Source of the DNA: Candidatus Omnitrophota bacterium
Lineage (GTDB): Bacteria; Omnitrophota; Gorgyraeia; Gygaellales; Profunditerraquicolaceae
Length of the DNA stretch: 64,000 nt
Assembly: GCA_041651115.1 (NCBI GenBank)
Contig: JBAZJY010000003.1
Location: 73,829 to 137,828 of the forward strand
Reading direction: 5' to 3'
Shown: piece by piece, positions 1-59,184 of the stretch
Layout of the letters: the number at the start of each line of letters is the position of its first letter
How positions within the stretch are numbered: the first letter of the stretch is position 1
Notes under the pieces: model-generated
What the model was told of the DNA's origin: nothing
The model's database searches: none
Seen by the model: only the letters and a program-made list of their open reading frames with translations
Position numbers and translations under genes: made by a program

Positions 1-396
1 GCGCTTGAACTTTTCGTCGGTATCCTCGATCTTCTTTGCCAGATCAATCTCGTTTTCACGGGAAAGCAGCGATATCGAACCCATCTGCTTGAGATACATC
101 TTTACCGGGTCATCCAGGGGCATAAACCGTTCTGCCGCGGCAACGCTCTCATTCATTGCCTCTTCTTTTAATGCCAGTGCCTGCTGTGTTTGCTGCGCCG
201 GAGATTTCTCTTCGACATTTTCCACTACTTGGATATCCTCATTACCAAGAAGCTCAAATATCTTATCTATCTCTTCAGACGAAGATACGTCATCCGCCAG
301 CAGGTCATTTACTTCGTCATAGGTGAGATATCCTTTTTGCCTGCCTAAGGCAATGATCTTCTCAACATTCTTTTTATTCAGTTCCTTCTTCTTCAT
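1..396 (-). CDS. rpoD: RNA polymerase sigma-70 RpoD. N-terminal part only; the gene runs off the window start.
   Basis: Reverse-strand translation from the ATG at 394-396 gives MKKKELNKKNVEKIIALGRQKGYLTYDEVNDLL...VKMYLKQMGSISLLSRENEIDLAKKIE, the typical sigma-70 region 1.1/1.2. It lies immediately downstream of dnaG, the conserved dnaG-rpoD arrangement. The frame stays open to position 1. Confidence 0.85.
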   Translation of the reverse strand, partial: MKKKELNKKNVEKIIALGRQKGYLTYDEVNDLLADDVSSSEEIDKIFELLGNEDIQVVENVEEKSPAQQTQQALALKEEAMNESVAAAERFMPLDDPVKMYLKQMGSISLLSRENEIDLAKKIEDTDEKFKR

Positions 397-401
397 GGCG
401 C

Positions 402-2165
402 TTACCCCTTTTTTATTAAAAGATGGAATTCCTGCATTAGTGAATTGAGCCGTTTATTATCGCCCAAACGCTGCGCAGCCTTGATCTGATCATGCAAATC
501 ATGCTGCCTTGATTTTATTTTCTCGCTCTTTAACCTGCGGATACATTCTCCGACGACTTTTTCCCGCTGCTCATCGGAAACTTCCGGCATGAACGCCGAT
601 TCACAGACAACGTGCAAGATATCTTCATCGCCGAAATGATCTATTAATACGGCTTTATTTATATCCCTGCCTTTACCGGCCAGGTCGTACATCGCAGAAA
701 CGATCTTGCAAGTCAGCGCGCCTTGAAAATCTTCCGGGCTAAGGTGCTGCCGGACATGGTCAATAAGGTTATCCTCTTCCAGCATCAACTTTATCAGCAG
801 CTTTTCCGTCGGGTTGACATCTGCCGCTTTTTTCCTGTCCGCGTAAGACGTTGAAGCCGGAAAGCCGGGCTTAATTTCCTTAAGCTTACCTATCTCCGCA
901 AGCAGGGCATCTTCATTAACGCTTAATTCATCGGCAAGCTTTTTAATATATTCCGACTTTAAGACCGCGTCCGTGAATTTATTTATCGTCGGAAGCATTT
1001 CCGCGGATATCTTCGCCTTGCCTTCTATGCCCTTGGAGCCGTATTGCGCCCTTAATATCTTAAGCTTATAATCAAAGAGATTTTCGGCGTTGGCAATCTT
1101 TTCCCTGAACGCGGCAATGCCGTGCTTGCGCACAAAAGTATCCGGGTCAAAGCCTTCGGGAAGCGGCGCCACCCTGACAGTTAAACCTTCCGCGATGAAC
1201 ATATCCAGCGCGCGTAAAGTCGCCATCTGGCCGGCAGAATCGCCGTCATAAACCATGACGATGTTATGGGTAAACCTTTTTAAAAGCCGGATCTGTTCTT
1301 CAGTAAGCGCAGTGCCGGATGAAGCAACAATATTTTTCAGGCCTTCCTGATAGGGAATGATAAAATCGAGATAACCTTCAACAACTACCGCGGAATCTTC
1401 CTGCCTTATGGCGTCTTTGGCAAAATTCAGGCCGAAAAGGCATTTGCCCTTGACGTAAACCGGGGTTTCCGGCGAATTCATATATTTGGGCATGGAGGCG
1501 TCCAGCACCCTGGCGCCAAAACCCACGACCTTGGACTTTATGTCAAAAATCGGAAAGATTATCCGGTTACGGAACCGGTCATAATACCCGCCGCCGTCTT
1601 TGGCAAGGATCAGCCCTGCCTTTTCTAAAAGTGACAGCGGCGCATTTTTCTGCCTTAGGTGATTGATCAGTCCGTCCCATTTATCAAAAGAAAAACCCAA
1701 TTTGAATAATTTCGCCGTATCCTCTTTTATACCCCGGCTGATCAGGTATTTCCTGGGCCCGGAAGCATCCGGCGAATGCAGATTAGTTTCATAGAACGCT
1801 GCTGCCAGTTCATTGATCTTATAAAGCTGGGATGAGATACTTGCGCTGGCAGGCGAAACATCCGGGTTTTGAGGAAGGATCACCCCGGTCTTTCTTGCCA
1901 GCTGCTCCACTGCCTCAGGGAATTCAAGGCGCTCATAGCGCATCAAGAACTTAAAGGCATTCCCCGATTCTCCGCAGCCAAAACAATGGTAGATCTGGCG
2001 GTCAGGCGAAACCATAAAAGACGCTGTTTTCTCGTGATGAAAAGGACAGTTAGCCTTAAAGTTCCTGCCTGCGCGCTTAAGCGGTATATAGCCGGAAATA
2101 ACTTCAACAATATCTACCCGGCTTAAAACATCCTCTAATATATTTTCCGGAATAAGGCCGGCCAT
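402..2165 (-). CDS. dnaG: DNA primase DnaG
   Basis: 587 aa. N-terminal CHC2 zinc finger (NCPFHHEKTASFMVSPDRQIYHCFGCGESGN), followed by the TOPRIM region (VVVEGYLDFI ... VYDGDSAGQ). Confidence 0.92.
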   Translation of the reverse strand: MAGLIPENILEDVLSRVDIVEVISGYIPLKRAGRNFKANCPFHHEKTASFMVSPDRQIYHCFGCGESGNAFKFLMRYERLEFPEAVEQLARKTGVILPQNPDVSPASASISSQLYKINELAAAFYETNLHSPDASGPRKYLISRGIKEDTAKLFKLGFSFDKWDGLINHLRQKNAPLSLLEKAGLILAKDGGGYYDRFRNRIIFPIFDIKSKVVGFGARVLDASMPKYMNSPETPVYVKGKCLFGLNFAKDAIRQEDSAVVVEGYLDFIIPYQEGLKNIVASSGTALTEEQIRLLKRFTHNIVMVYDGDSAGQMATLRALDMFIAEGLTVRVAPLPEGFDPDTFVRKHGIAAFREKIANAENLFDYKLKILRAQYGSKGIEGKAKISAEMLPTINKFTDAVLKSEYIKKLADELSVNEDALLAEIGKLKEIKPGFPASTSYADRKKAADVNPTEKLLIKLMLEEDNLIDHVRQHLSPEDFQGALTCKIVSAMYDLAGKGRDINKAVLIDHFGDEDILHVVCESAFMPEVSDEQREKVVGECIRRLKSEKIKSRQHDLHDQIKAAQRLGDNKRLNSLMQEFHLLIKKG

Positions 2166-3632: not shown

Positions 3633-3699
3633 GCGTTTACTCCGTTAAATTTTTAAAAGTATAACATATTGTAGGTAAGTTGTCAAGGAAAGCGCTTTC

Positions 3700-4470
3700 C
3701 TAAAAATCCAGGGACATGCCGTCATAGGCAGCTACAACTTCTATACCCAGCTTGCGCGATAATGCCTCGGCTTGCAGGTGCGGTTTTGCCTTAAGCATGG
3801 TCATCCCAAAATGCGTCAGGATGGCTTTTTTAGGCCTGATTTTACGGATTATCTCTTCTGCCTCCGGCAGCGAAAGATGGGCAATCTCCGGGCGCGGCTC
3901 CAAAAAGACTACGCTGATAATCAGGATATCGGACTTATAAAAATCCGTAAGCGCCGAAAATGACCTGGTATCCGTGATTAAGCCTACCGTAGTTTTTTTG
4001 ATCTTGAACTTCAGGCCATAGGTAGCGCAAGGATGGATATGCTCCATTGAGGTTTGAAACTTAAAACCTTTTACGCTGTAGCTGCGCTTTGCTTCCAACT
4101 CAATGATACTCTCCGGAAATTTCCTCAGGTATTTCAGGACTACGGGATCATCCTGCAGCGCATCTTTTGGGCAAAAAACGATTCCCCGCTTTTTAAAGCC
4201 CCCTTCAGTCATTGCCTCAATGATCACGTTAATATCTCCGGAATGATCAAGGTGCCGGTGGGTCAGGATTACCGCGTCTAAAAGCGAAGGGTTCAATTTT
4301 GGCCGGCTGGCTGCGCAGCGGACAATGCTGCCCGGCCCGGGATCGATCAAGATATTTACCCCGGCGCAAGACACCCAAATGCCTCCGGAAGCGCGCAGCT
4401 GTTTGATCATTACAAAGCGCGCGCCGGCAGTGCCGAGGAATTTTATAAAGTCACCCTTCACTTCAACCAT
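3700..4470 (-). CDS. MBL-fold metallo-hydrolase
   Basis: 256 aa with the HxHxDH motif (THRHLDHSGD) and a C-terminal His (ILTHFG) characteristic of the metallo-beta-lactamase superfamily. Confidence 0.7.
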   Translation of the reverse strand: MVEVKGDFIKFLGTAGARFVMIKQLRASGGIWVSCAGVNILIDPGPGSIVRCAASRPKLNPSLLDAVILTHRHLDHSGDINVIIEAMTEGGFKKRGIVFCPKDALQDDPVVLKYLRKFPESIIELEAKRSYSVKGFKFQTSMEHIHPCATYGLKFKIKKTTVGLITDTRSFSALTDFYKSDILIISVVFLEPRPEIAHLSLPEAEEIIRKIRPKKAILTHFGMTMLKAKPHLQAEALSRKLGIEVVAAYDGMSLDF

Positions 4471-4946
4471 AGTTTTTTAAGCTCTTCGTTAATTTTGGCT
4501 GTCTGGCTGTAATTCAACACGGGCTTTGTGTCATTTTCCCGCGCCTGCCTCTGCGCAGCCGAGCGCCGCGGCAAACCGATAAATTCTTCCACGCTCATTG
4601 CCTTTGCCCCGCAGTGCCTGGCAAAAGAAGCTATTTCCCTGTCGTCGGAGACAACAACGGTATTTTTTCTGTCCTGCAGATTTTCAAGCATACTCTTTAT
4701 TTTCTCATCTGCGCTGGAGTCCCCGGAAAAAACCACGCTGAAACGGCCCTCTTGCCGCTTGAGGCCCGGCTCGGAAGCATAACCGTCAAAGACCAGCGTT
4801 GCTTTATTCTTCAGGCTCCCGCAGAGGTTATTTGTTGTGATCAGGTTTATCAGCGAAGACGCAGAGTTCCGCGTTTTTCTACTTGGCCGGGGAAACAGGC
4901 GGTGATTTGTGATATTGTAGCCGTCGATTACGAACTGTAAAGACAT
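4458..4946 (-). CDS. NYN-domain (YacP-like) protein
   Basis: An N-terminal FVIDGYNIT motif and a later LVFDG motif resemble the YacP/LabA NYN nuclease fold. The start is placed at the internal Met ([12 protein letters not shown]); the ORF track extends it to 4988. Confidence 0.5.
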   Translation of the reverse strand: MSLQFVIDGYNITNHRLFPRPSRKTRNSASSLINLITTNNLCGSLKNKATLVFDGYASEPGLKRQEGRFSVVFSGDSSADEKIKSMLENLQDRKNTVVVSDDREIASFARHCGAKAMSVEEFIGLPRRSAAQRQARENDTKPVLNYSQTAKINEELKKLWLK

Positions 4947-10341: not shown

Positions 10342-10833
10342 TTAGATTTCCTTGATCTTTTTGCCGTATTTTATCCTGTCAATCAATGACGCGTGGTCAA
10401 CGATCAACGTGCCGTTCAAATGGTCTATTTCATGCTGAAACACGCAGGCAAGCAAGCCTTCTGCTTCAATAGTCACGGGTTTGCCGTTCTCATCTAACCC
10501 TTCCACCACTACGGATTGCGCGCGTTTGACCCTTACCCCGACTTCCGGCACACTTAAACATCCCTCTTCGCTTACCTGCTGGCCGCGGGTTTCCACGATC
10601 CGCGGGTTTACCAGTTTATAGAGCCCGCTTCCCGCGTCAACCACGATCAGCGATTCAGTAATGCCTACCTGCGGAGCGGCAAGGCCAATGCCGGAAACCG
10701 CATACATCAGCCGCGCCATTTCGCTTAAAAGCCTACGGTGGTTATCGGTTACTTTTTCAACCTGCTGCACGCCGTTCTTCAAAACTTTATCGCCCAGCGT
10801 CCTAATTTTTAATTCGGTTTCTTTCATCGACAT
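10342..10833 (-). CDS. def: Peptide deformylase
   Basis: 163 aa. [17 protein letters not shown] and QHEIDHLNG motifs. Confidence 0.92.
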
Positions 10834-11152
10834 TGACTATTTTAGGTAAAACTTTTTTTGCCTCTTTATCTTCAATAATGGCATAGGACAAAACGATCAC
10901 CTGATCGCCGACGCATACCCCGCGTGCTGACGGGCCATTAAGGCAGATTATGCCTGAACCGGCCTTACCTTCTATCGCGTATGTTTCAAGCCGGTGCCCG
11001 TTATTGAGGTTAAGCACTTCCACTTTTTCACCCGGCAAGATATCCGCTTTTTTCATCAGCTTCGCGTCAATGGTAATGCTGCCTTTATAATAGAGGTTGG
11101 CCTCAGTCACCCTGGCACGATGGATCTTTGATTTTAGCATAGTTCTTAACAT
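10802..11152 (-). CDS. panD: Aspartate 1-decarboxylase
   Basis: The [30 protein letters not shown]-terminus includes the Gly-Ser self-processing site. The start is taken at the conserved MLRTML rather than at the ORF-track Met at 11179, which would lie inside the palindromic element. Confidence 0.88.
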
Positions 11153-11163
11153 ATTTACTCCTT

Positions 11164-11239
11164 TAGGGACGGTTCTCAAGCCAAGGGAAAAGTGTCCCCA
11201 TGCGGGGACATTTTTCTCCTTGGTTGAGAACCGTCCCTA
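11164..11239. mobile_element. MITE/REP-like palindromic element, family A copy 1: TA-flanked, 16-nt terminal inverted repeats TAGGGACGGTTCTCAA
   Basis: 76-nt near-perfect hairpin: tagggacggttctcaa-gccaagggaaaa-gtgtcccc-atgc-ggggacat-ttttctccttgg-ttgagaaccgtcccta. A second copy with identical termini is at 45771. It sits in the ackA 3' end / panD RBS junction. Confidence 0.7.
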
Positions 11240-12291
11240 ATCGTTATTAAATGTACTGCCTTACGCGCGATCATTAATTCTTCGTTTGTCGGGACAACCA
11301 GCACCTTGGGTTTTTTCCTTAAATGCGAAAATGCCCCGCTTGATACGCGGTCGCGGATGCTCTTCTGATTCTCTCCGATACCGGCGGTAAATATCAGCGC
11401 GTCGCATCCTGCCATTACCGCGGTATAGGCGCCGATATATTTCTTGATCCGGTAGACAAAGATCTCCAATGCCAGCTTTGCCCGCTTATTCCCCGCTTTG
11501 GAAGCAGCCTCCAGCATACGCATATCATTGCTGATGCCGGAAACGCCCTTAAGCCCGCTCTCTTTATTCAAAATGCCGTCTATCCGGGAAGCGGTCAATT
11601 TAGCTTTATTCATAATATGGGTTACCAGCGCAGGGTCAAGATCTCCGCAGCGCGTACCCATTAAAAGCCCTTCCAGCGGAGTAAAACCCATGCTGGTATC
11701 AATTGATTTACCTTTATCCACTGCCGTAATGCTGCAGCCATTGCCCAAATGACAGGTGATCATCTTTAAACCGGCAAGAGGCTTATGTAAAATTTTTGCC
11801 GCCTCATGCGCAACGTATTCATGGCTGGTGCCGTGAAAGCCGTATTTCCTTATCCCGAATTTACGGTAATACGCATAAGGCAAGCCGTAAATATAAGCGT
11901 ACTCCGGAAGGGTCTGGTGAAAGGCAGTATCAAATACCGCCACCTGTGTTACTCCGGGCAATAATTTTTTACAGGCAAGGATGCCGGTAAGATTTGCCGG
12001 ATTGTGTAATGGCGCAAGGCTCGAACATTGCTTGATCTTATTGATCACTGCCGCATTGATCACTACCGGCCGGCGGAATTTTTCCGCGCCGTGCACTACG
12101 CGGTGGCCGATCAGATGGACGCCGTCAACTTTTTCTAAAATTATTTCCAAGCCCCTATGATGGTCTTTTATTTCCGAGCCTTTTTCTCCGATATGCTCAA
12201 CAAGGCCTTTTGATATAAGCCTGCCCCTGGGCATATCAAAAAGCTTGTATTTTATTGAAGAACTGCCGCAGTTAATAACAAGTACTTTCAT
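11176..12291 (-). CDS. ackA: Acetate kinase, with a C-terminal tail encoded by a palindromic repeat insertion
   Basis: [16 protein letters not shown]-terminus and the later FHGTSH and GNGCS ... EELMIAR motifs. The start ATG overlaps the pta stop (TAATG). The last ~21 codons are read from repeat element A1. Confidence 0.85.
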
Positions 12292-13220
12292 TACTGAGCC
12301 CTGATCGCGGTTACTGCCACACAATCAACCACATCATCAACAGAACAGCCGCGCGAAAGGTCGCTGCACGGCTTATTTAACCCTAAAAGCAGCGGGCCTA
12401 AGGCGCGCGCGTTAGCCAGGCGCTGCACCAGCTTGTAGCCGATATTGCCGGCTTCCAGGTCCGGGAAAACCAATACGTTTGCCTGGCCGGCGATAGGGCT
12501 ATCGGGATATTTTATCTGCGCTACCTCCGGCACGATCGCCGCGTCAACCTGCAGCTCTCCGTCAACCAAAAGTTCCGGGGACATTGTTTTTACTGTCTTC
12601 AGGGCCTCGGTAATCGTATCAATATTTTTTCCCTTTGCCGAACCTTTTGTGGAATAACTTAAAAATGCCACCTTCGGCTTGATGTCTAAAACTTTTTCCG
12701 CCAACTCTGCCGAAGCAACGGCAATACAGGCAAGCTGCCGGGAATTCGGGTCCGGGATAATGCCGCAATCGGCAAAAACGAAGTTCCCTTTTTCGCCGTA
12801 CGGACAGTCCGGCACGGCCATGATAAAACAACTGCAGACAATACTGATGCGCTGGTCGATCTCCAGACAATGGATTGCCGCTCTTGCCACGTCCGGAGTG
12901 GTATGGCTTGCTCCGGCGACAAAACCGTCGGCTTTGCCTTCGCGGGTCATCATTGCCGCGTAATAAAGCGTATCATCAAACATCTTCCTTGCTTCATCCG
13001 GGGTAATGCCTTTGGCTTTACGCAGGTTGTAATATTGCTCAATATACTTTTCTTTAGCCTGCGGATCCATCATCTCTTTAGTCAACAGAATGACGTTCGC
13101 AATGCCTTCCCGCTCAATGATTTTTGCCGCTTCCGCTACGCGGCTATCGTGATATTCCGGCAGGATGATCGTCTTCCTTTTTGCTCCTGCGCGCTGGCGT
13201 ATTAATCCGATAGTATCCAT
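12291..13220 (-). CDS. pta: Phosphate acetyltransferase (short-form Pta/Ptb)
   Basis: 309 aa. The ILPEYHDSRVAEAA and C-terminal SRGCSVDDVVDCVAVTAI motifs match short phosphotransacetylases. It sits immediately upstream of ackA. Confidence 0.85.
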   Translation of the reverse strand: MDTIGLIRQRAGAKRKTIILPEYHDSRVAEAAKIIEREGIANVILLTKEMMDPQAKEKYIEQYYNLRKAKGITPDEARKMFDDTLYYAAMMTREGKADGFVAGASHTTPDVARAAIHCLEIDQRISIVCSCFIMAVPDCPYGEKGNFVFADCGIIPDPNSRQLACIAVASAELAEKVLDIKPKVAFLSYSTKGSAKGKNIDTITEALKTVKTMSPELLVDGELQVDAAIVPEVAQIKYPDSPIAGQANVLVFPDLEAGNIGYKLVQRLANARALGPLLLGLNKPCSDLSRGCSVDDVVDCVAVTAIRAQ

Positions 13221-16682: not shown

Positions 16683-16704
16683 CGCGCCTCCTTATGTTCC
16701 TTTA

Positions 16705-16733
16705 TTCTACTGCCGGATTAAAAATAGGTCAAC
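16705..16733 (-). promoter_or_regulatory. Sigma-70-like promoter TTGACC-N17-TAGAAT, copy 1, upstream of the secreted-protein gene
   Basis: The minus-strand sequence reads ctgTTGACCtatttttaatccggcagTAGAATaaag. The ATG at 16682 follows about 22 nt later with an AAGGAGG RBS. Confidence 0.5.
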
Positions 16734-16797
16734 AGAAATGATTTTACTTCAGGCCGTTGTTCAGATGAGAACATTTTGGGCGCAAGATAATTTACTC

Positions 16798-17280: not shown

Positions 17281-17397
17281 CTTTTGCCATTTATGAATTT
17301 ATTTTATAACTTCATAAATCATATCAACTTGTGTAAAGCGTCTTAAACCTTACTTGCACAGAAAGTACACACAACCTATCTTTTTAGGTTTAGCTAT

Positions 17398-17426
17398 ATT
17401 CTACTGCCGGTTTAAAAATAGGTCAA
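17398..17426 (-). promoter_or_regulatory. Sigma-70-like promoter TTGACC-N17-TAGAAT, copy 2, upstream of the pilin gene
   Basis: The 32-nt block (attctactgccggNttaaaaataggtcaaNag) is near-identical to the one at 16704-16735. It lies about 118 nt upstream of the pilin ATG and overlaps the stop of the BNR gene. Confidence 0.45.
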
Positions 17427-18955
17427 GAGCTATTGCGGGAAAAATACCCGCCGGTAAGGCCGTCAAGCATTGCCGTCAGCTCGCGCAAGCGCAGTTCCTT
17501 TTCAAACCTCTTCTTCCTGTCTTCGATCGCCAGATTATCCAGTTCGGCCTTGACGCGGATGCGCTCAAAATACAGCTTTGTTACTTCATCAAGTATGTCG
17601 CCGCGCAGCTGCACCATCAGCCTGGAGCGCGTATCAATTGATGTCTGCTCACTATTCCAGACGATCTCACTCAAATCCCAACTTAATGATACATCCCAGC
17701 CGATACTATCCCTGCCCCGCATTAATACATCATCGCAGGTTTTTGTGCTGGAGCCCGATTCCCAATGCCAGAGATCGCCGGTGTCTCTGTCGATACCTAC
17801 GGTAAATCTAGGCATGAATGCTTTTTTGGCAGCCTGCCTTCTCCAACGGATGATCTTTTCCGGTTCAACTTCCGCGTATTTGATCGCGGCTTTCTGGACC
17901 TTATCAATCTCCGGTTCGCCGTTAAGATACAAAGCTTCTATTTTATTGCCGCTATTGTCTACGCAGGAACCAATACGGCCTTTAAACAAACCGCTGTTGC
18001 AGGCAGCATATATATTGCCCTGCCTGTCAGAATCAAGCCCGCGGATATCCTGCGCAATTAAGCCGACAGATACCTCAAACCACCGATCATCCTGCAAAAG
18101 AAATATGCCTTTCTTTACGCAGGCAAAGAGCCGGGAATCAATAGATATTAACAGCAGATTTATATATTTATCGAACAAACCGTAATCCGGCAACAATTCC
18201 CATGTATTTCCGCTGTCAATGCTTTCATAAGTCTTCCCTGCTGCAGCAAGATACAAATGCCCTGGTTTACGGTAATCAACGGCTAAAGAACATGTTTCGC
18301 TAACTTCATCTGCGGCTTCTTCAGCCGCTTCTTCCGGAGCCTCATTATCAATTCCGGCAGAAGGAACAAAAACTCTTTGCCAATTACCTGTGCCGGATTG
18401 CATCTTAAATACTCCCTGTGCGGAAGCAGCATAAATATTGCCTGCGTCAACGCTAATCGTGCATATCCGGCTGTTTGCTAAAATGCCGGCTTCTTTTTGC
18501 CAGCTGCGGCAGTTATCTTTACTGACAAATAATCCTGCTTTTGTCCCTAAATAGATACGATTATTAAACAGCGCAACAGAGCTACAATTACTTTCCAGAT
18601 AATCCCTGCCCTTAAATACCCTTTTCCAATTTGAGCCCTGATCACGGCTTAAATATAACCCATTCCCCGTAGCTGCCAGTAAAAGGTTGGTTCCGCTTAC
18701 CGCAACAAAAAAATTGACCTGCTGCCTTACGGTTAAAACATGTCTCCATTGTTTACCGGCATTCTCGGTTTTTATGATCCCGCCTGCTGAACCGGCTACG
18801 ATCACTGATGCGTTATCAGGATTCACCCAAACCGCGCTGAAGCGCAAGTTACCACCTCCGATATCCTGCCATTCTGCCTGTTGCGCTGCCAGGCTGTTTG
18901 CCACAGTCACGGCTATTAAAAACATGACCGTAAAAATAAGTTCACGTTTCTTCAT
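17423..18955 (-). CDS. Secreted BNR/Asp-box repeat protein with a C-terminal coiled-coil region
   Basis: 510 aa. Signal peptide, then several SxDxGxxW Asp-box motifs (SRDQGSNW, SKDNCRSW, SIDSGNTW). Confidence 0.5.
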   Translation of the reverse strand: MKKRELIFTVMFLIAVTVANSLAAQQAEWQDIGGGNLRFSAVWVNPDNASVIVAGSAGGIIKTENAGKQWRHVLTVRQQVNFFVAVSGTNLLLAATGNGLYLSRDQGSNWKRVFKGRDYLESNCSSVALFNNRIYLGTKAGLFVSKDNCRSWQKEAGILANSRICTISVDAGNIYAASAQGVFKMQSGTGNWQRVFVPSAGIDNEAPEEAAEEAADEVSETCSLAVDYRKPGHLYLAAAGKTYESIDSGNTWELLPDYGLFDKYINLLLISIDSRLFACVKKGIFLLQDDRWFEVSVGLIAQDIRGLDSDRQGNIYAACNSGLFKGRIGSCVDNSGNKIEALYLNGEPEIDKVQKAAIKYAEVEPEKIIRWRRQAAKKAFMPRFTVGIDRDTGDLWHWESGSSTKTCDDVLMRGRDSIGWDVSLSWDLSEIVWNSEQTSIDTRSRLMVQLRGDILDEVTKLYFERIRVKAELDNLAIEDRKKRFEKELRLRELTAMLDGLTGGYFSRNSS

Positions 18956-19076: not shown

Positions 19077-19086
19077 TAAAAAATAT

Positions 19087-19137
19087 GGGGACGGTTCTAT
19101 TTTTCAACTAAAAATAGAACCGTCCCCGGTTTTTCAA
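19087..19137. repeat. Perfect 18-bp-stem hairpin related to the family A termini
   Basis: ggggacggttctattttt-caact-aaaaatagaaccgtcccc. It shares the GGGACGGTTCT core with family A. It lies in a 334-nt hairpin-rich intergenic region. Confidence 0.6.
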
Positions 19138-22902: not shown

Positions 22903-22950
22903 TAGGGACAGAGCCTACTTTTCTGTACAGAAAAGTAGGCTCTGTCCCTA
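22903..22950. repeat. Palindromic element family B copy 1 (TAGGGACAGAG...); likely bidirectional intrinsic terminator
   Basis: tagggacagagcctacttttctg-taca-gaaaagtaggctctgtcccta, flanked by an A-tract upstream and a T-tract downstream. It lies directly after the hppA stop. Confidence 0.65.
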
Positions 22951-45770: not shown

Positions 45771-45847
45771 TAGGGACGGTTCTCAACTCAAAGCTAAAGT
45801 GTCCCCTTTATGGGGACACTTTAAGATTGGCTTGAGAACCGTCCCTA
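45771..45847. mobile_element. MITE/REP-like palindromic element, family A copy 2
   Basis: 77 nt. Termini are identical to copy 1 (tagggacggttctcaa ... ttgagaaccgtcccta) and the inner gtgtcccc/ggggacac stem is the same. The internal loop sequence differs. It is intergenic and TA-flanked. Confidence 0.7.
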
Positions 45848-46806: not shown

Positions 46807-49800
46807 TTAAGCATTCTCTTTTCTCTTCTTTTTCTCTTCCAATATCTTCGCGGCGATCTCAAAAGGAACCTGCATATATTTTTCAAAATGCATGGACGCG
46901 TTTGCCCTGCCGCTGGACAAAGAACGGAAATTCGTGGCATAGCCGAACATTTCTGCCAGCGGCGCTTCCGCATCAATGATCTTTTGTTTGCCCTTGGTGT
47001 CCATGCCAAGGATCTTACCGCGGCAGGAACAGATGTATCCGACAACGGCATTGACATATTCTTCGGGAGTAACGACTTCCAACGACATATATGGCTCAAG
47101 CAAAACCGGATCTGCCCGCATAAACGTCTCTTTAAAACAGCCGATCGCCGCCAGCTTAAACGCCAGTTCCGAAGAATCAACATCGTGAAAAGAACCGTCG
47201 GTAAGGTTAACTTTAATATTTACCACCGGATACCCGGCGTAAGCTCCGTTACGCATTGCCTCAACAACGCCTTTTTCTACTGCCGGGATGAACGACCGGG
47301 GGATCGCACCGCCCTTGATGCTGTTAATAAATTCAAATTCTTCTCCGGGTTCAGCCGGGATCAATTCCATCACTACGTGGCCGTATTGGCCGCGTCCGCC
47401 TGACTGCTTGATGTGCTTATATTCGCCCGAGACTTTCTTTAGTATGGTTTCCCGGTAAGCGACCTTGGGTTTGCCGACAACCGCGTCAACGCCGAATTCT
47501 ACTTTTAGCCGGTCGACAATAATCTCAAGATGCAGCTCGCCCATGCCGGTAAGGATCGTCTCTTTCGTTTCTTCGTCGGTTTCTACCTTGAATGTCGGGT
47601 CCTCTTCGGTAAGCTTTGCCAGGCCTTTGCCAAGCTTGTCCTGGTCTGCCTTGCCGGCCGGAGTAATACTAAGCGAAACTACCGGCACAGGGAACTCGAT
47701 CGCTTCCAGGAGCACCGGATGCTCCGGATCGCAAAGCGTATCGCCGGTTACAGTATTGCCGAGGCCGATCACTGCCACGATCTCTCCGGCAAGCGCCCTA
47801 TCCCTTGCTTCACGCTGATTAGCATGCATCTGCAATATCCTGCCGATGCGTTCCTTTTTATTTTTCGTAACATTAAAGACATAGGATCCGGTATCAAGGA
47901 ATCCGGAGTAGATCCTTAAATAAACAAGCTTGCCCATATGCGGGTCTGACTGGATCTTAAACGCCAGCGCGGAAAACGGCTCGCCGGTATCGGGCTTACG
48001 GCTGATCACCTTTTGCGCGTCATTTGGATCATGGCCGTCTACCGGAGGGACATCTAACGGCGAAGGCAAATAAGCGACAACCGCGTCCAAGAGTTTCTGC
48101 ACGCCCTTGTTCTTGAAAGACGCGCCGCAAAGCACCGGCACCATTTTATTGGCAACCGTTCCCTTGCGAATAGCCTGGGATAATTCTTCCGCGGTCAGCG
48201 AATCCGCGGACTCAAGGTATTTTTTCATCAGGGTATCGTCAAAGGCAGCCACGCGTTCAACCATGATATGCCGGTATTTGGCAGCAGCTTCCTTGTAATC
48301 CGCGGGGATCTCTTCAACCCTGTAACTCTTGCCCAGCGATTCGTCTTCATAATAATAAGCCTTCATTTCCAAAAGATCTACTACTCCCTGGAAATTCTCT
48401 TCCGCGCCGATGGGGATTTCAAGCGGAATGACGTTACCGCCCAGCTCCTCTTCGATCCCTTTGATCACCGCGAAAAAATCCGCGCCCATGCGGTCCATTT
48501 TATTGATAAAGGCGATCTTGGGGACGTTATATTTATTGGACTGATGCCAGACAGTTTCCGATTGCGGCTCGACTCCGCCTACGGCGCAAAATACCGCTAC
48601 TGCCCCGTCTAATACGCGCAGGCTGCGCTCGACCTCCGCGGTAAAATCAACGTGGCCGGGCGTATCGATGATATTAATCCGGTAATCCTTCCAGTAACAG
48701 GTAGTTGCCGCGGAAGTAATGGTAATGCCGCGCTCCTGCTCCTGCTTCATCCAATCCATCTGTGCCTTGCCTTCATGGACCTCGCCGATCTTGTGCGACC
48801 TGCCGGTATAAAAAAGAATACGTTCTGTTGTGGTAGTCTTACCGGCGTCGATATGCGCCATGATCCCGATATTGCGCACCATATTTAAATCTACTTTAGG
48901 AGCAGGCGCAGCTTCTTTGGGTGTTTCCGGGGCTGGCGGCTCGGACTCCGGAGTTTCAGGCTGCGGTTCAGGCGCAGATGGTTCAGGTTGCGGCTCCGGT
49001 ACAGCTGGCTCAGGCTGCGGTTCAGGTACGGTTAATTCAGGCTGCGGGGCTTCTTCCGGAACGGGCGCCGGGGTTTCTTCCGGAGTTGGCTGCGCGGTTT
49101 CTTCCTGCGCTGGTTGCGGAAGCTCTTCTTGCGCAGGCTGCGGCTGCGCCTTAAACTTCATCAGCTCATCAAATAATGCCTGCGCTTTATTCTCCTGCGC
49201 TTCCAGTTCCTTTTCCAGATCGCTGTATTCTTCGTTAAGCTTGACAAATTCCTGCTTCGGGACCCACTCGCTGGTTTCCTGCTGTTTTTTAAATACGGTG
49301 ATCGTATTAAGATGGTCTTTTAATTCTTTACTGAATTCATCAACCTGAAGCTTCAAGCGCTGGTTTTCTTCGTCTAACTTTTTATTTTTTTCTTCCAACG
49401 ACTGGTATTTTAAGTCAGCTTCGCGCATCTGCCGCGTTAAATCCACATTTTTGGCAAATTCATCCTGCAGGTCTTTTTCCTTTTTTATAAATCTTTTTTC
49501 CAGTTCATCAAATTGCGCTTTAAGTTTTACCGCCAACTCTTCTTCTTTAGCAACCCAGTCCTGCCTCCTGGCAAGTTCTGCTTTAAGGTCAGCTTCTCTT
49601 TTTAAAGCTGCGTCCAGTTCCGGACGAAGATTTTCCTGGGCGGGCTTTTGCTCTTGTGTATCCGGCAGAACAACGGCAGGCAACTCTTCTTTGTGTTTGC
49701 CAAACGAAAAGACTGGGGCCGGCTTAACCGGCTTGGGAGTTTTTGGGGGTTTTTTTGCCTTTTTGGAAGATGTATCTGACGGCAACAGGGCATAAGTTGC

Positions 49801-49845
49801 CAAGCCTACGCCGCAGAGGAATAGCGCCGCAAGTAATATGATCAT
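46807..49845 (-). CDS. fusA: Elongation factor G with a 320-aa N-terminal extension: TM anchor, coiled coil and Pro/Glu-rich linker
   Basis: 1012-aa continuous ORF. Residues ~325-1012 are canonical EF-G (G1 [10 protein letters not shown]3 DTPGHVDF, G4 NKMD, domain IV HDVDSSE). Residues 1-22 form a hydrophobic anchor, ~60-260 are heptad coiled coil, and ~262-320 are the (PEPQPEP)n repeat. Confidence 0.85.
48955..49060 (-). repeat. Imperfect tandem repeat of about 24-27 nt inside the EF-G-fusion ORF, encoding the (PEPQPEPxxP)n linker
   Basis: Plus-strand units ggctgcggttcaggcgcagatggttcaggttgcggctccggtacagctggctcaggctgcggttcaggtacgg. These translate on the minus strand to [24 protein letters not shown]. 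Confidence 0.6.
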
Positions 49846-59135: not shown

Positions 59136-59184
59136 TAGGGACAGAGACTACTTTTCTATAATAGAAAAGTAGTCTCTGTCCCTA
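59136..59184. repeat. Palindromic element family B copy 2
   Basis: tagggacagagactacttttct-ataata-gaaaagtagtctctgtcccta flanked by aaaaa/ttttt. It differs from copy 1 by paired compensatory changes (agcc/ggct versus agac/gtct) that keep the stem intact. Confidence 0.65.

Follow-up and report, generated by a model that had tools for sequence, protein, structure and literature searches.

The stretch of DNA analysed here (64,000 nucleotides of contig JBAZJY010000003.1, hereafter the window) belongs to a metagenome-assembled genome (MAG) of Candidatus Omnitrophota bacterium and carries on its minus strand the gene set pta (12291..13220), ackA (11176..12291), panD (10802..11152) and def. The ackA gene is deposited as encoding 371 aa and panD encodes a protein of 116 aa. 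At the junction between the two lies a palindromic element of 76 nt (11164..11239, copy 1), recognised from its repeats and its folding and missing from two orthologous loci. The ackA reading frame runs through this element. Copy 1 is a member of a large family of dispersed palindromes in Omnitrophota and is very probably a non-autonomous repeat of the REPIN/TIRtron type, that is, a relative of the repetitive extragenic palindromic (REP) sequences, whose partner in Omnitrophota is a Y1/HUH enzyme resembling the REP-associated tyrosine transposases (RAYTs) and TIRYTs.

Copy 1 is bounded by the 16-nt terminal repeat TAGGGACGGTTCTCAA (11164..11179, plus strand), which holds the shorter core GGGACGGTTCT, and by its inverted copy (11224..11239, minus strand). 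Exact matches to TAGGGACGGTTCTCAA occur four times in the window, at 11164-11179 (+), 11224-11239 (-), 45771-45786 (+) and 45832-45847 (-), against a chance expectation of 0.3; four or more were reached in none of 100 shuffles, and allowing up to three mismatches yields no further match in the window. The inner hairpin GTGTCCCC-ATGC-GGGGACAT (11192..11211) repeats this core as a degenerate pair in inverted orientation and is present in both window copies in the form GTGTCCCC-loop-GGGGACAY, while the approximately 12 nt that separate outer from inner repeats are dissimilar between copy 1 and copy 2. Each window copy folds into one long hairpin (-54 to -64 kcal/mol, z -10.7 to -13.1), and the palindrome of copy 1 is one base longer on each side (11163-11240, 78 nt). 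Matching and folding thus bear out the description from which this analysis started (the original prediction), namely a 76-nt palindrome with exact 16-nt ends folding as one hairpin and a second copy with identical termini at 45771-45847, the latter being 77 nt long.

The element contributes 20 residues to acetate kinase, encoded by the codons from 11238 down to 11179, followed by the stop codon TGA at 11178-11176 in the far arm. The tailed protein is that deposited as 'MAG: acetate kinase [Candidatus Omnitrophota bacterium]' (P0001) from a 357-kb contig. Its 119 AckA homologues are nearly all 349-359 aa long and mostly end 7-12 residues past the conserved ...EELMIAR, and none of them carries the element-encoded tail. 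The two closest ackA-panD loci with retrievable DNA, L001 (AckA 85% identical) and L002 (79% identical), are without the element. The empty site of L001 reads ...CACTTGGTGAAGGAGTAAATATGTTAAGAAC, i.e. ...GCAATGCACTTGGTG-AAGGAGTAAATATGTTAAGAAC, and that of L002 ...TTGATAAAGGAGACGCGATAATG (...CAGTTGATAAAGGAGACGCGATAATG), while the window junction consists of ...GCAGTACATTTAATAACGA followed by the element (TTAGGGAC...GTCCCTAA) and then AGGAGTAAATATGTTAAGAAC. In a MAFFT alignment both relatives show one 81-column gap exactly at the element, the surplus of the window being 78-81 nt. Since the L001 and L002 junctions are empty, the 20-residue tail of AckA is the product of an insertion, as had been predicted from the continuation of the ackA frame, and no orthologue sharing the tail was seen among the AckA sequences compared.

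A different conclusion is reached for the ribosome-binding site (RBS) of panD, which the original prediction had ascribed to the right terminus of the element. This AAGGAG (11158..11163, minus strand) lies immediately outside copy 1. In the empty loci AckA terminates ...KE* within AAGGAGTAAATATG, AAG GAG being the final two sense codons of ackA in these relatives, and the empty site of L001 contains AAGGAGTAAATATG unchanged. The arrangement AAGGAG-TAAAT-ATG is ancestral and the RBS is therefore not derived from the element. The spacing from the stop of ackA to the start of panD would have grown from 2 nt to 23 nt. Removing 78 nt (11163-11240) in silico restores an AckA ending in ...HLITKE*, close to the ...HLVKE* of L001. 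Removing the element together with one TA (74 nt) abolishes the ackA stop and fuses ackA in frame to panD, which argues against a simple TA duplication.

Further copies are found in the source genome. Copy 2 (45771..45847, 77 nt) occupies an 87-nt spacer between the gene of a 313-aa protein (stop 45851) and a family 2 glycosyltransferase gene (start 45763). In a 76%-identical relative the spacer at this position is only 33 nt judging from gene coordinates alone, so that the element cannot be present there. A third long copy lies on the same contig approximately 10 kb beyond window position 1, between ruvA and scpB (L251, 21602-21677); its sequence departs from that of copy 1 in 6 of 76 positions (92% identity), and its first three bases, a terminal TAG, double as the stop codon of ruvA. 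An internal AAGGAGAAAAATG, a perfect RBS plus ATG, is common to copies 1 and 3 and opens a mini-open reading frame of 11 codons. The approximately 74 kb of source genome covered hold these three long copies and one short relative of 43 nt (19086..19128), which comprises one inverted core pair, GGGGACGGTTCT ATTTTT caact AAAAAT AGAACCGTCCCC. The short palindrome has A-run/T-run flanks and resides in a 334-nt spacer between a CHAT/TPR gene and the next gene; the same 43-nt form also occurs in other Omnitrophota MAGs (L030, L066, L084).

A scan of JGI metagenome contigs with the pattern GGGACGGTTCTCAA-N30-60-TTGAGAACCGTCCC, the counts of which are lower bounds, identifies at least 116 loci and at least 119 distinct elements (123 matches including the two window copies), most of which are 71-75 nt long. 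Contigs bearing the family contain extra copies at approximately 16 per Mb of flanking sequence. Viral contigs scanned with the 16-mer gave six single-arm matches only, which is at chance level. The common plan reads (Y)A-GGGACGGTTCTCAA, about 12 nt, AA[C/G]TGTCCC(C), a loop of 4-7 nt, (G)GGGACA[C/G]TT, again about 12 nt and TTGAGAACCGTCCC-T(R). The element is thus an inverted doublet of two arms of approximately 36 nt, each composed of (Y)AGGGACGGTTCTCAA, about 12 variable nucleotides and GTGTCCCC. The arms are not mirror images, since at positions 15, 16 and 20-22 they show fewer Watson-Crick matches than shuffled partners (9 observed against 34 expected at position 15, 3 against 40 at position 22). 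One arm carries CTCAAAGCAGAAC, here called X1, and the other one of three alternatives, and therefore the element has a polarity. This asymmetry is comparable to that of the ends of IS200/IS605-type elements. An arm acting as a stable subterminal hairpin was also considered, and the common family variant folds with -8.6 kcal/mol (z -4.2); the window copies have z values of about -1, and this feature is not relied on.

The flanking sequences bear directly on the mode of insertion. TA is found on each side of both window copies, as originally noted, and of the third copy, but this does not hold for the family. Among the matches listed, 107 distinct copies have flanks, and the pairs are CA/TA in 33, TA/TA in 28, TA/TG in 21 and CA/TG in 12. 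The base just outside GGGAC/GTCCC is A in 97% on one side and T in 96% on the other, one position further out the 5' side has C or T and the 3' side has A or G, and tests for direct repeats are at or near chance. Therefore TA is not constant, and the flanks imperfectly prolong the inverted repeat, with no direct duplication. The search for wider copies proposed at the outset has, in the form of this metagenome scan, yielded the 116 or more loci but no constant TA target.

The copies have a marked position relative to genes. In 31 of 121 copies an upstream open reading frame (ORF) of at least 120 open codons reads into the element (these being open frames rather than curated genes), with tails that start RDGSQ..., GRFS... 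or GTVL..., and in 15 further copies the upstream frame stops at the terminal TAG. Altogether a long upstream ORF ends next to or within the element in 46 of 121 copies, and many copies are placed 5-15 nt 5' of GGAG plus ATG. The extension of AckA is thus typical of the family, and the likeness that had been drawn to in-frame palindromic elements such as the Rickettsia palindromic elements (RPEs) is apt. One copy (L134, 938-1010) seems to lie in frame within a long ORF that stays open for 225 codons before it and for about 335 after it, and contributes the peptide RDGSQPEAKVSPKEGHFKIGLRTVP; this could be a true intragenic insertion as with RPEs, or else a fusion of two genes.

The identity of the partner enzyme follows from full-length relatives of the element. 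A tblastn search with a Y1 protein from a Clostridiales MAG (L029, see below) retrieved a homologue on L202, a contig that also bears a 73-nt copy of the family. Here the left arm (287-322, CAGGGACGGTTCTCAAGTCGTTCGTAAAGTGTCCCC) begins 2 nt past a stop codon, a 161-aa Y1 ORF (322..807) follows on the opposite strand with the HUH and tyrosine motifs MPNHVHLVVEV and YIEANPIRASL (HVH, Y..NP), and the right arm (857-892, GGGGACACTTTTGCTTTGAGTTGAGAACCGTCCCTA) lies immediately 5' of the mnmG RBS, so that the unit spans the interval from stop codon to RBS. The full-length unit of approximately 600 bp thus consists of two 36-nt arms that face each other and flank a Y1 gene of about 158 aa, and the 73-77-nt elements correspond to both ends of such a unit joined together. 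The same arms lie on both sides of the Y1 gene in all five Omnitrophota loci examined (L202 and L245-L248, the latter four including three NCBI MAGs), although in L245 the contig ends inside the downstream arm, which is only partly visible. The X1-type arm is located upstream of the Y1 start in the three units L202, L247 and L248, as read from their sequences. The Y1-bearing units are flanked by TA/TG, CA/TA, CA/TG and CA/TA.

Four of the loci share the gene order mnmG-Y1-apgM, followed in L246-L248 by a ribonucleotide reductase gene, the synteny of L202 being read only up to mnmG. Clusters of the Y1 protein comprise 1-10 contigs each. Together with the conserved neighbourhood, this suggests a gene that is kept in single copy and passed on vertically, as RAYT genes are. 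The Y1 protein has 432 homologues, all of about 158 aa and matching PF01797. All named homologues come from Candidatus Omnitrophota and are labelled 'transposase' or 'REP element-mobilizing transposase RayT', and a sequence search of the PDB found no match at E<=0.01. The protein scores 74 bits with the RAYT model and 26.6 bits with the IS200 model. It is the only gene found between these termini. The original prediction had invoked a transposase of the Tc1/IS630 type, but the full-length relatives encode a Y1/HUH rather than a DDE enzyme, and no DDE transposase Pfam match, IS630/Tc1 included, is found in the approximately 52 kb of annotated source sequence. A second, different Y1 homologue resides on the family-bearing contig L151, and the 26-nt inverted repeat on either side of it (CTTGTAGACAGTCTACGTAACCCTAT, 3653-3678 and 4477-4502) is unrelated; therefore these genomes carry more than one such pair of Y1 gene and repeat.

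The core of the terminal repeat extends far beyond Omnitrophota. A scan of one genome per species with GGGACGGTTCT-N22-52-AGAACCGTCCC gives at least 119 loci where approximately two are expected by chance (our own estimate). The matches listed belong to Bacillota, Bacteroidota, Actinomycetota, Atribacterota, Elusimicrobiota and Omnitrophota and include Lachnospiraceae, Bacillus, Neobacillus and Falsibacillus (among them complete genomes), Syntrophomonas, Prevotella and Muribaculaceae. Its arrangements range from single units through inverted and nested doublets to tandem arrays with a 21-23-nt period, and the core is usually bracketed by complementary flanks, e.g. GGAGACAg-core-gTGTCTCC. Six or more consecutive pairs between the immediate flanks are seen in 40% of 334 cores compared to 4% with shuffled partners. 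Outside the long form of Omnitrophota the core is presented as the loop of a short hairpin, the stem of which co-varies freely between genomes. In L029 six direct and four inverted core units flank a PF01797 gene of 258 aa, the product of which is 39% identical to the Y1 protein of L202 and includes a C-terminal extension of 120 aa with no Pfam match at E<=0.01. Tandem arrays are located at 1302-1396, 4449-4564 and 5710-5783 in L029 (21-nt period) and at 4809-4980 in L101 (23-nt period, ++++----). In L029 the spacers are by turns CTTTCAAAA and its reverse complement, which allows each core to be a hairpin loop.

It may tentatively be proposed that one clade of RAYT-like Y1 enzymes uses this core of 11-12 nt, (G)GGGACGGTTCT, as an 'address' across phyla, although we would sooner bet against this than for it. 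If true, this would be a REP system set by a conserved loop instead of a conserved stem and shared far more widely than the lineage-specific REPINs so far described, with a routine remodelling of protein C-termini. A core tied to one Y1 clade would also provide a compact substrate for the first biochemistry of TIRYT-type enzymes. A full-text literature search for the exact core string returned unrelated primers only.

Taken together, the conserved RAYT-type Y1/HUH partner in Omnitrophota argues for an element of the REPIN type rather than a miniature inverted-repeat transposable element (MITE) of the Tc1/IS630 type. The TnpA enzymes of IS200/IS605 and the TnpA-REP of E. coli are described as recognising structured single-stranded DNA ends, acting via a 5'-phosphotyrosine and leaving no target duplication (PMC6006769). 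By analogy, the Y1 enzyme would act in trans on the arms in single-stranded DNA and would cut and rejoin them through a 5'-phosphotyrosine intermediate. The doublet would then be moved or copied, probably as single-stranded DNA, without target duplication, and the lack of a consistent direct repeat in the flanks fits such an insertion. The usual landing site would be the short stretch that separates a stop codon from the RBS of the next gene. Copy 1 may have landed approximately 7 nt 5' of the original ackA stop, thereby adding 20 codons up to the TGA in the far arm. The panD start region AAGGAG-TAAAT-ATG has been left untouched and is now found directly 3' of the foot of a 35-bp hairpin, which a ribosome would have to unwind to reach the TGA in the 3' arm. 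Any resulting change in the expression of ackA or panD is likewise conjectural.

Several observations weigh against this assignment. The ends read YAGGGACGGTTCT (T/C-A-GGGAC) and have no canonical 5' GTAG tag, GTAG being present at an element end only upstream of copy 2, by chance. The arms of the window copies fold weakly by themselves (-4.3 to -4.5 kcal/mol, z about -1). With its 74 bits the Y1 protein falls 6 below the cut-off of 80 of the NCBIfam model 'REP-associated tyrosine transposase' (NF047646). No Y1 gene is found in the window or in the approximately 52 kb of source sequence that were annotated (some 42 kb from the window and 10 kb from beyond its start), and a partner acting in trans in the source MAG is assumed from its relatives. 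We know of no demonstrated activity for any enzyme of the TIRYT-like clade. Finally, the exact boundaries of the insertion are ambiguous, as in-frame excisions of 72, 75, 78 and 81 nt all give plausible tails and the nearest empty site, only 85% identical at the protein level, does not allow them to be fixed to the nucleotide. What is claimed for the ackA target, from the sequences, is confined to the apparent lack of a simple TA duplication, with a nucleotide-exact reconstruction that is ambiguous.

The reading as a MITE that was moved by a DDE transposase of the Tc1/IS630 family and duplicated a TA target would account for the TA on both sides of all three copies in the source genome and for terminal inverted repeats that enclose no coding capacity. 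It is however already largely refuted and most improbable. The TA/TA pair is confined to 28 of 107 copies, the A...T and Y...R positions belong to the inverted repeat, none of the four Y1-flanked full-length units has TA on both sides, excision with one TA leaves a stop-less ackA fused to panD, the only gene found between such ends encodes Y1, and the approximately 52 kb of annotated source sequence contain no DDE match. It is just as hard to credit that the hairpin is a resident cis-regulatory RNA of the ackA-panD junction (acting in termination, attenuation or mRNA stabilisation) and did not arrive by insertion. In favour of this, the transcribed strand forms a very stable hairpin, the inner hairpin with its CTTTTCCCTT tail is terminator-like by prediction, and family copies prefer the spacers between stop codon and next RBS. 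Yet both of the closest orthologous junctions are without the hairpin and the same sequence is present at more than 100 unrelated loci, while the position of the ackA stop in the 3' arm means that translating ribosomes would melt the structure. Furthermore, the 7-bp inner hairpin has only a weak CTTTTCCCTT tail and the full hairpin is followed by AAAGGAGTAAAT; without a U-tract at its 3' side it is therefore not a canonical intrinsic terminator. No Rfam family matches: the whole window has no match at the gathering threshold, and a relaxed search of the locus returned generic long-hairpin microRNA models far below threshold.

Two further explanations grant that the repeat is mobile. The repeats could have spread without the Y1 gene, by recombination, gene conversion between palindromes or another enzyme, with the Y1 gene merely situated inside one copy. 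To our knowledge nothing is known biochemically for this Y1 clade, and the source sequence covered has no Y1 gene. Quentin et al. (2018) found no REP-like sequences next to Y1 genes of subclass 2.1 (PMC6006769). This explanation is nonetheless improbable considering that the arms occur at the same distance and with the same polarity in five of five Omnitrophota Y1 genes, that arrays of this 11-nt core also surround the unrelated Clostridiales Y1 gene, and that repeats flanking a Y1 gene are the defining pattern of RAYT/REPIN systems (PMC5581495). The other explanation is compatible with a REPIN-like origin and adds a co-opted role, in which the repeat, as an RNA hairpin or RNase III-type target, would uncouple or stabilise the ackA and panD messages. 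It would explain the strong bias to spacers between stop codons and RBSs, evident from the 46 of 121 copies at or over an upstream ORF end and the many just 5' of GGAG plus ATG, and REP/BIME and Correia elements are reported to affect mRNA stability (PMC3733652). The bias could however just as well stem from a target preference or from purifying selection against insertions elsewhere, and co-option is regarded as somewhat unlikely, though less so than spread without Y1.

Apart from this family, the window contains several other repeats. A second type of palindrome is present as a near-identical perfect pair at 22903-22950 and 59136-59184, TAGGGACAGAG[C/A]CTACTTTTCT.. / ..AGAAAAGTAG[G/T]CTCTGTCCCTA. 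Both copies have A/T-run flanks and lie just 3' of the stop of a minus-strand gene (59182-59184 overlaps the stop), and the one at 22903-22950 is bidirectionally terminator-like by prediction. This type has the TAGGGAC end in common with the main family, its other strand begins with the classical REP tag GTAG, and it was seen in no other retrieved locus. A 36-nt direct repeat (16700-16735 and 17394-17429, 92% identical) contains a promoter-like, near-consensus minus-strand site, TTGACC-17-TAGAAT, and one repeat lies upstream of each of two neighbouring genes; both encode proteins of about 160 aa, and a weak prepilin N_methyl match is seen for one of the two. Three to four tandem 27-nt repeats (GCGG[C/T]TC[G/A]G..., 48936-49043) are located in a 1012-aa gene with GTP_EFTU/EFG domains (46807..49845, minus strand), where they probably encode a repetitive low-complexity linker.

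The assignment of this element has practical consequences. An abundant and unannotated repeat of an uncultivated phylum can be placed in a known class of mobile elements and its likely enzyme named. Gene callers turn these repeats into C-terminal extensions (AckA as well as the RDGSQ..., GRFS... and GTVL... tails) in approximately a quarter of the copies. Recognising such repeat-derived tails is of use for cleaning up annotation, and the tails are natural tests of the C-terminal variation that enzymes tolerate.

Of the systems with which the family can be compared, IS200/IS605 elements and the gene-less PATEs likewise combine a Y1/HUH enzyme with structured, imperfectly symmetric ends, and insertion is expected to occur without target duplication. 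Unlike in the present family, the ends of IS200/IS605 are not mutual inverted repeats and the elements are multi-copy together with their gene, whereas the Y1 gene described here appears to be single-copy and syntenic and scores far better as a RAYT than as IS200. Correia/NEMIS and other TA-duplicating MITEs, which duplicate TA on insertion, resemble the family in size, terminal inverted repeats, proximity to genes and a hairpin in the RNA; here TA is not constant and the partner is a Y1 gene. RPEs and intragenic REPs are similar in that palindromic repeats are tolerated in frame and add residues (31 of 121 copies extend an ORF here, and one looks internal), but RPEs have no sequence relationship to the family, which mostly generates C-terminal extensions. 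For RPEs a CGTC tag is reported, and no transposase is known (PMC3733652). Membership of the CGTC-tagged REP superfamily, suggested by AGAAC-CGTC-CCC, was rejected because the tag is internal here and because those repeats are also without an associated transposase (PMC3733652).

The closest parallels are found in two related systems. REPINs are REP doublets forming hairpins that are accompanied by a RAYT (Bertels and Rainey 2011, PMC3116915; Bertels et al. 2017, PMC5581495). The present family shares with them the inverted doublet of a short conserved sequence around a variable middle, the single hairpin and, by extrapolation of the copy number per genome from the contigs covered, probably the tens of dispersed extragenic copies; moreover, its sequences lie on both sides of one Y1/HUH gene whose chromosomal neighbourhood is conserved from genome to genome. 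It departs from them in the score of the Y1 protein just below the RAYT cut-off and in the many copies that overlap gene 3' ends, and the host phylum Omnitrophota is not covered in those papers (PMC3116915, PMC5581495). TIRtrons comprise RAYT-like genes, the TIRYTs, flanked by long inverted repeats with a GGGGWSAS motif rather than by GTAG REPs, and their repeats can be single, dimeric or clustered (Di Nocera et al. 2013, PMC3733652). The 36-nt inverted arms around the Y1 genes and the singles, dimers and arrays of the core agree with this description. The inner repeat GGGGACAC/GGGGACAG fits GGGGWSAS and the outer repeat GGGGACGG/AGGGACGG departs from it at position 7. Twenty of 26 published TIRYTs belong to TnpA-Y1 subclass 2.1 (Quentin et al. 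2018, PMC6006769). In contrast to that subclass, the Omnitrophota protein is short (158 aa) and without the typical C-terminal helix-turn-helix or DnaA-like domain, whereas the 258-aa Clostridiales protein has a C-terminal extension.

The literature search found no paper on this Omnitrophota family or on the GGGACGGTTCT core as such, joint mentions of RAYT and Omnitroph* being incidental. The original prediction of a non-autonomous, palindromic mobile repeat is upheld by the insertion and by the family, but the notion that the family is new has to be narrowed, for although undescribed in the literature found it belongs to a described class. The part most worth following up is the cross-phylum core with its co-varying hairpin stems. 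Overall, the Omnitrophota family is an undescribed member of the known RAYT/REPIN and TIRYT/TIRtron class (PMC3733652, PMC6006769, PMC3116915).

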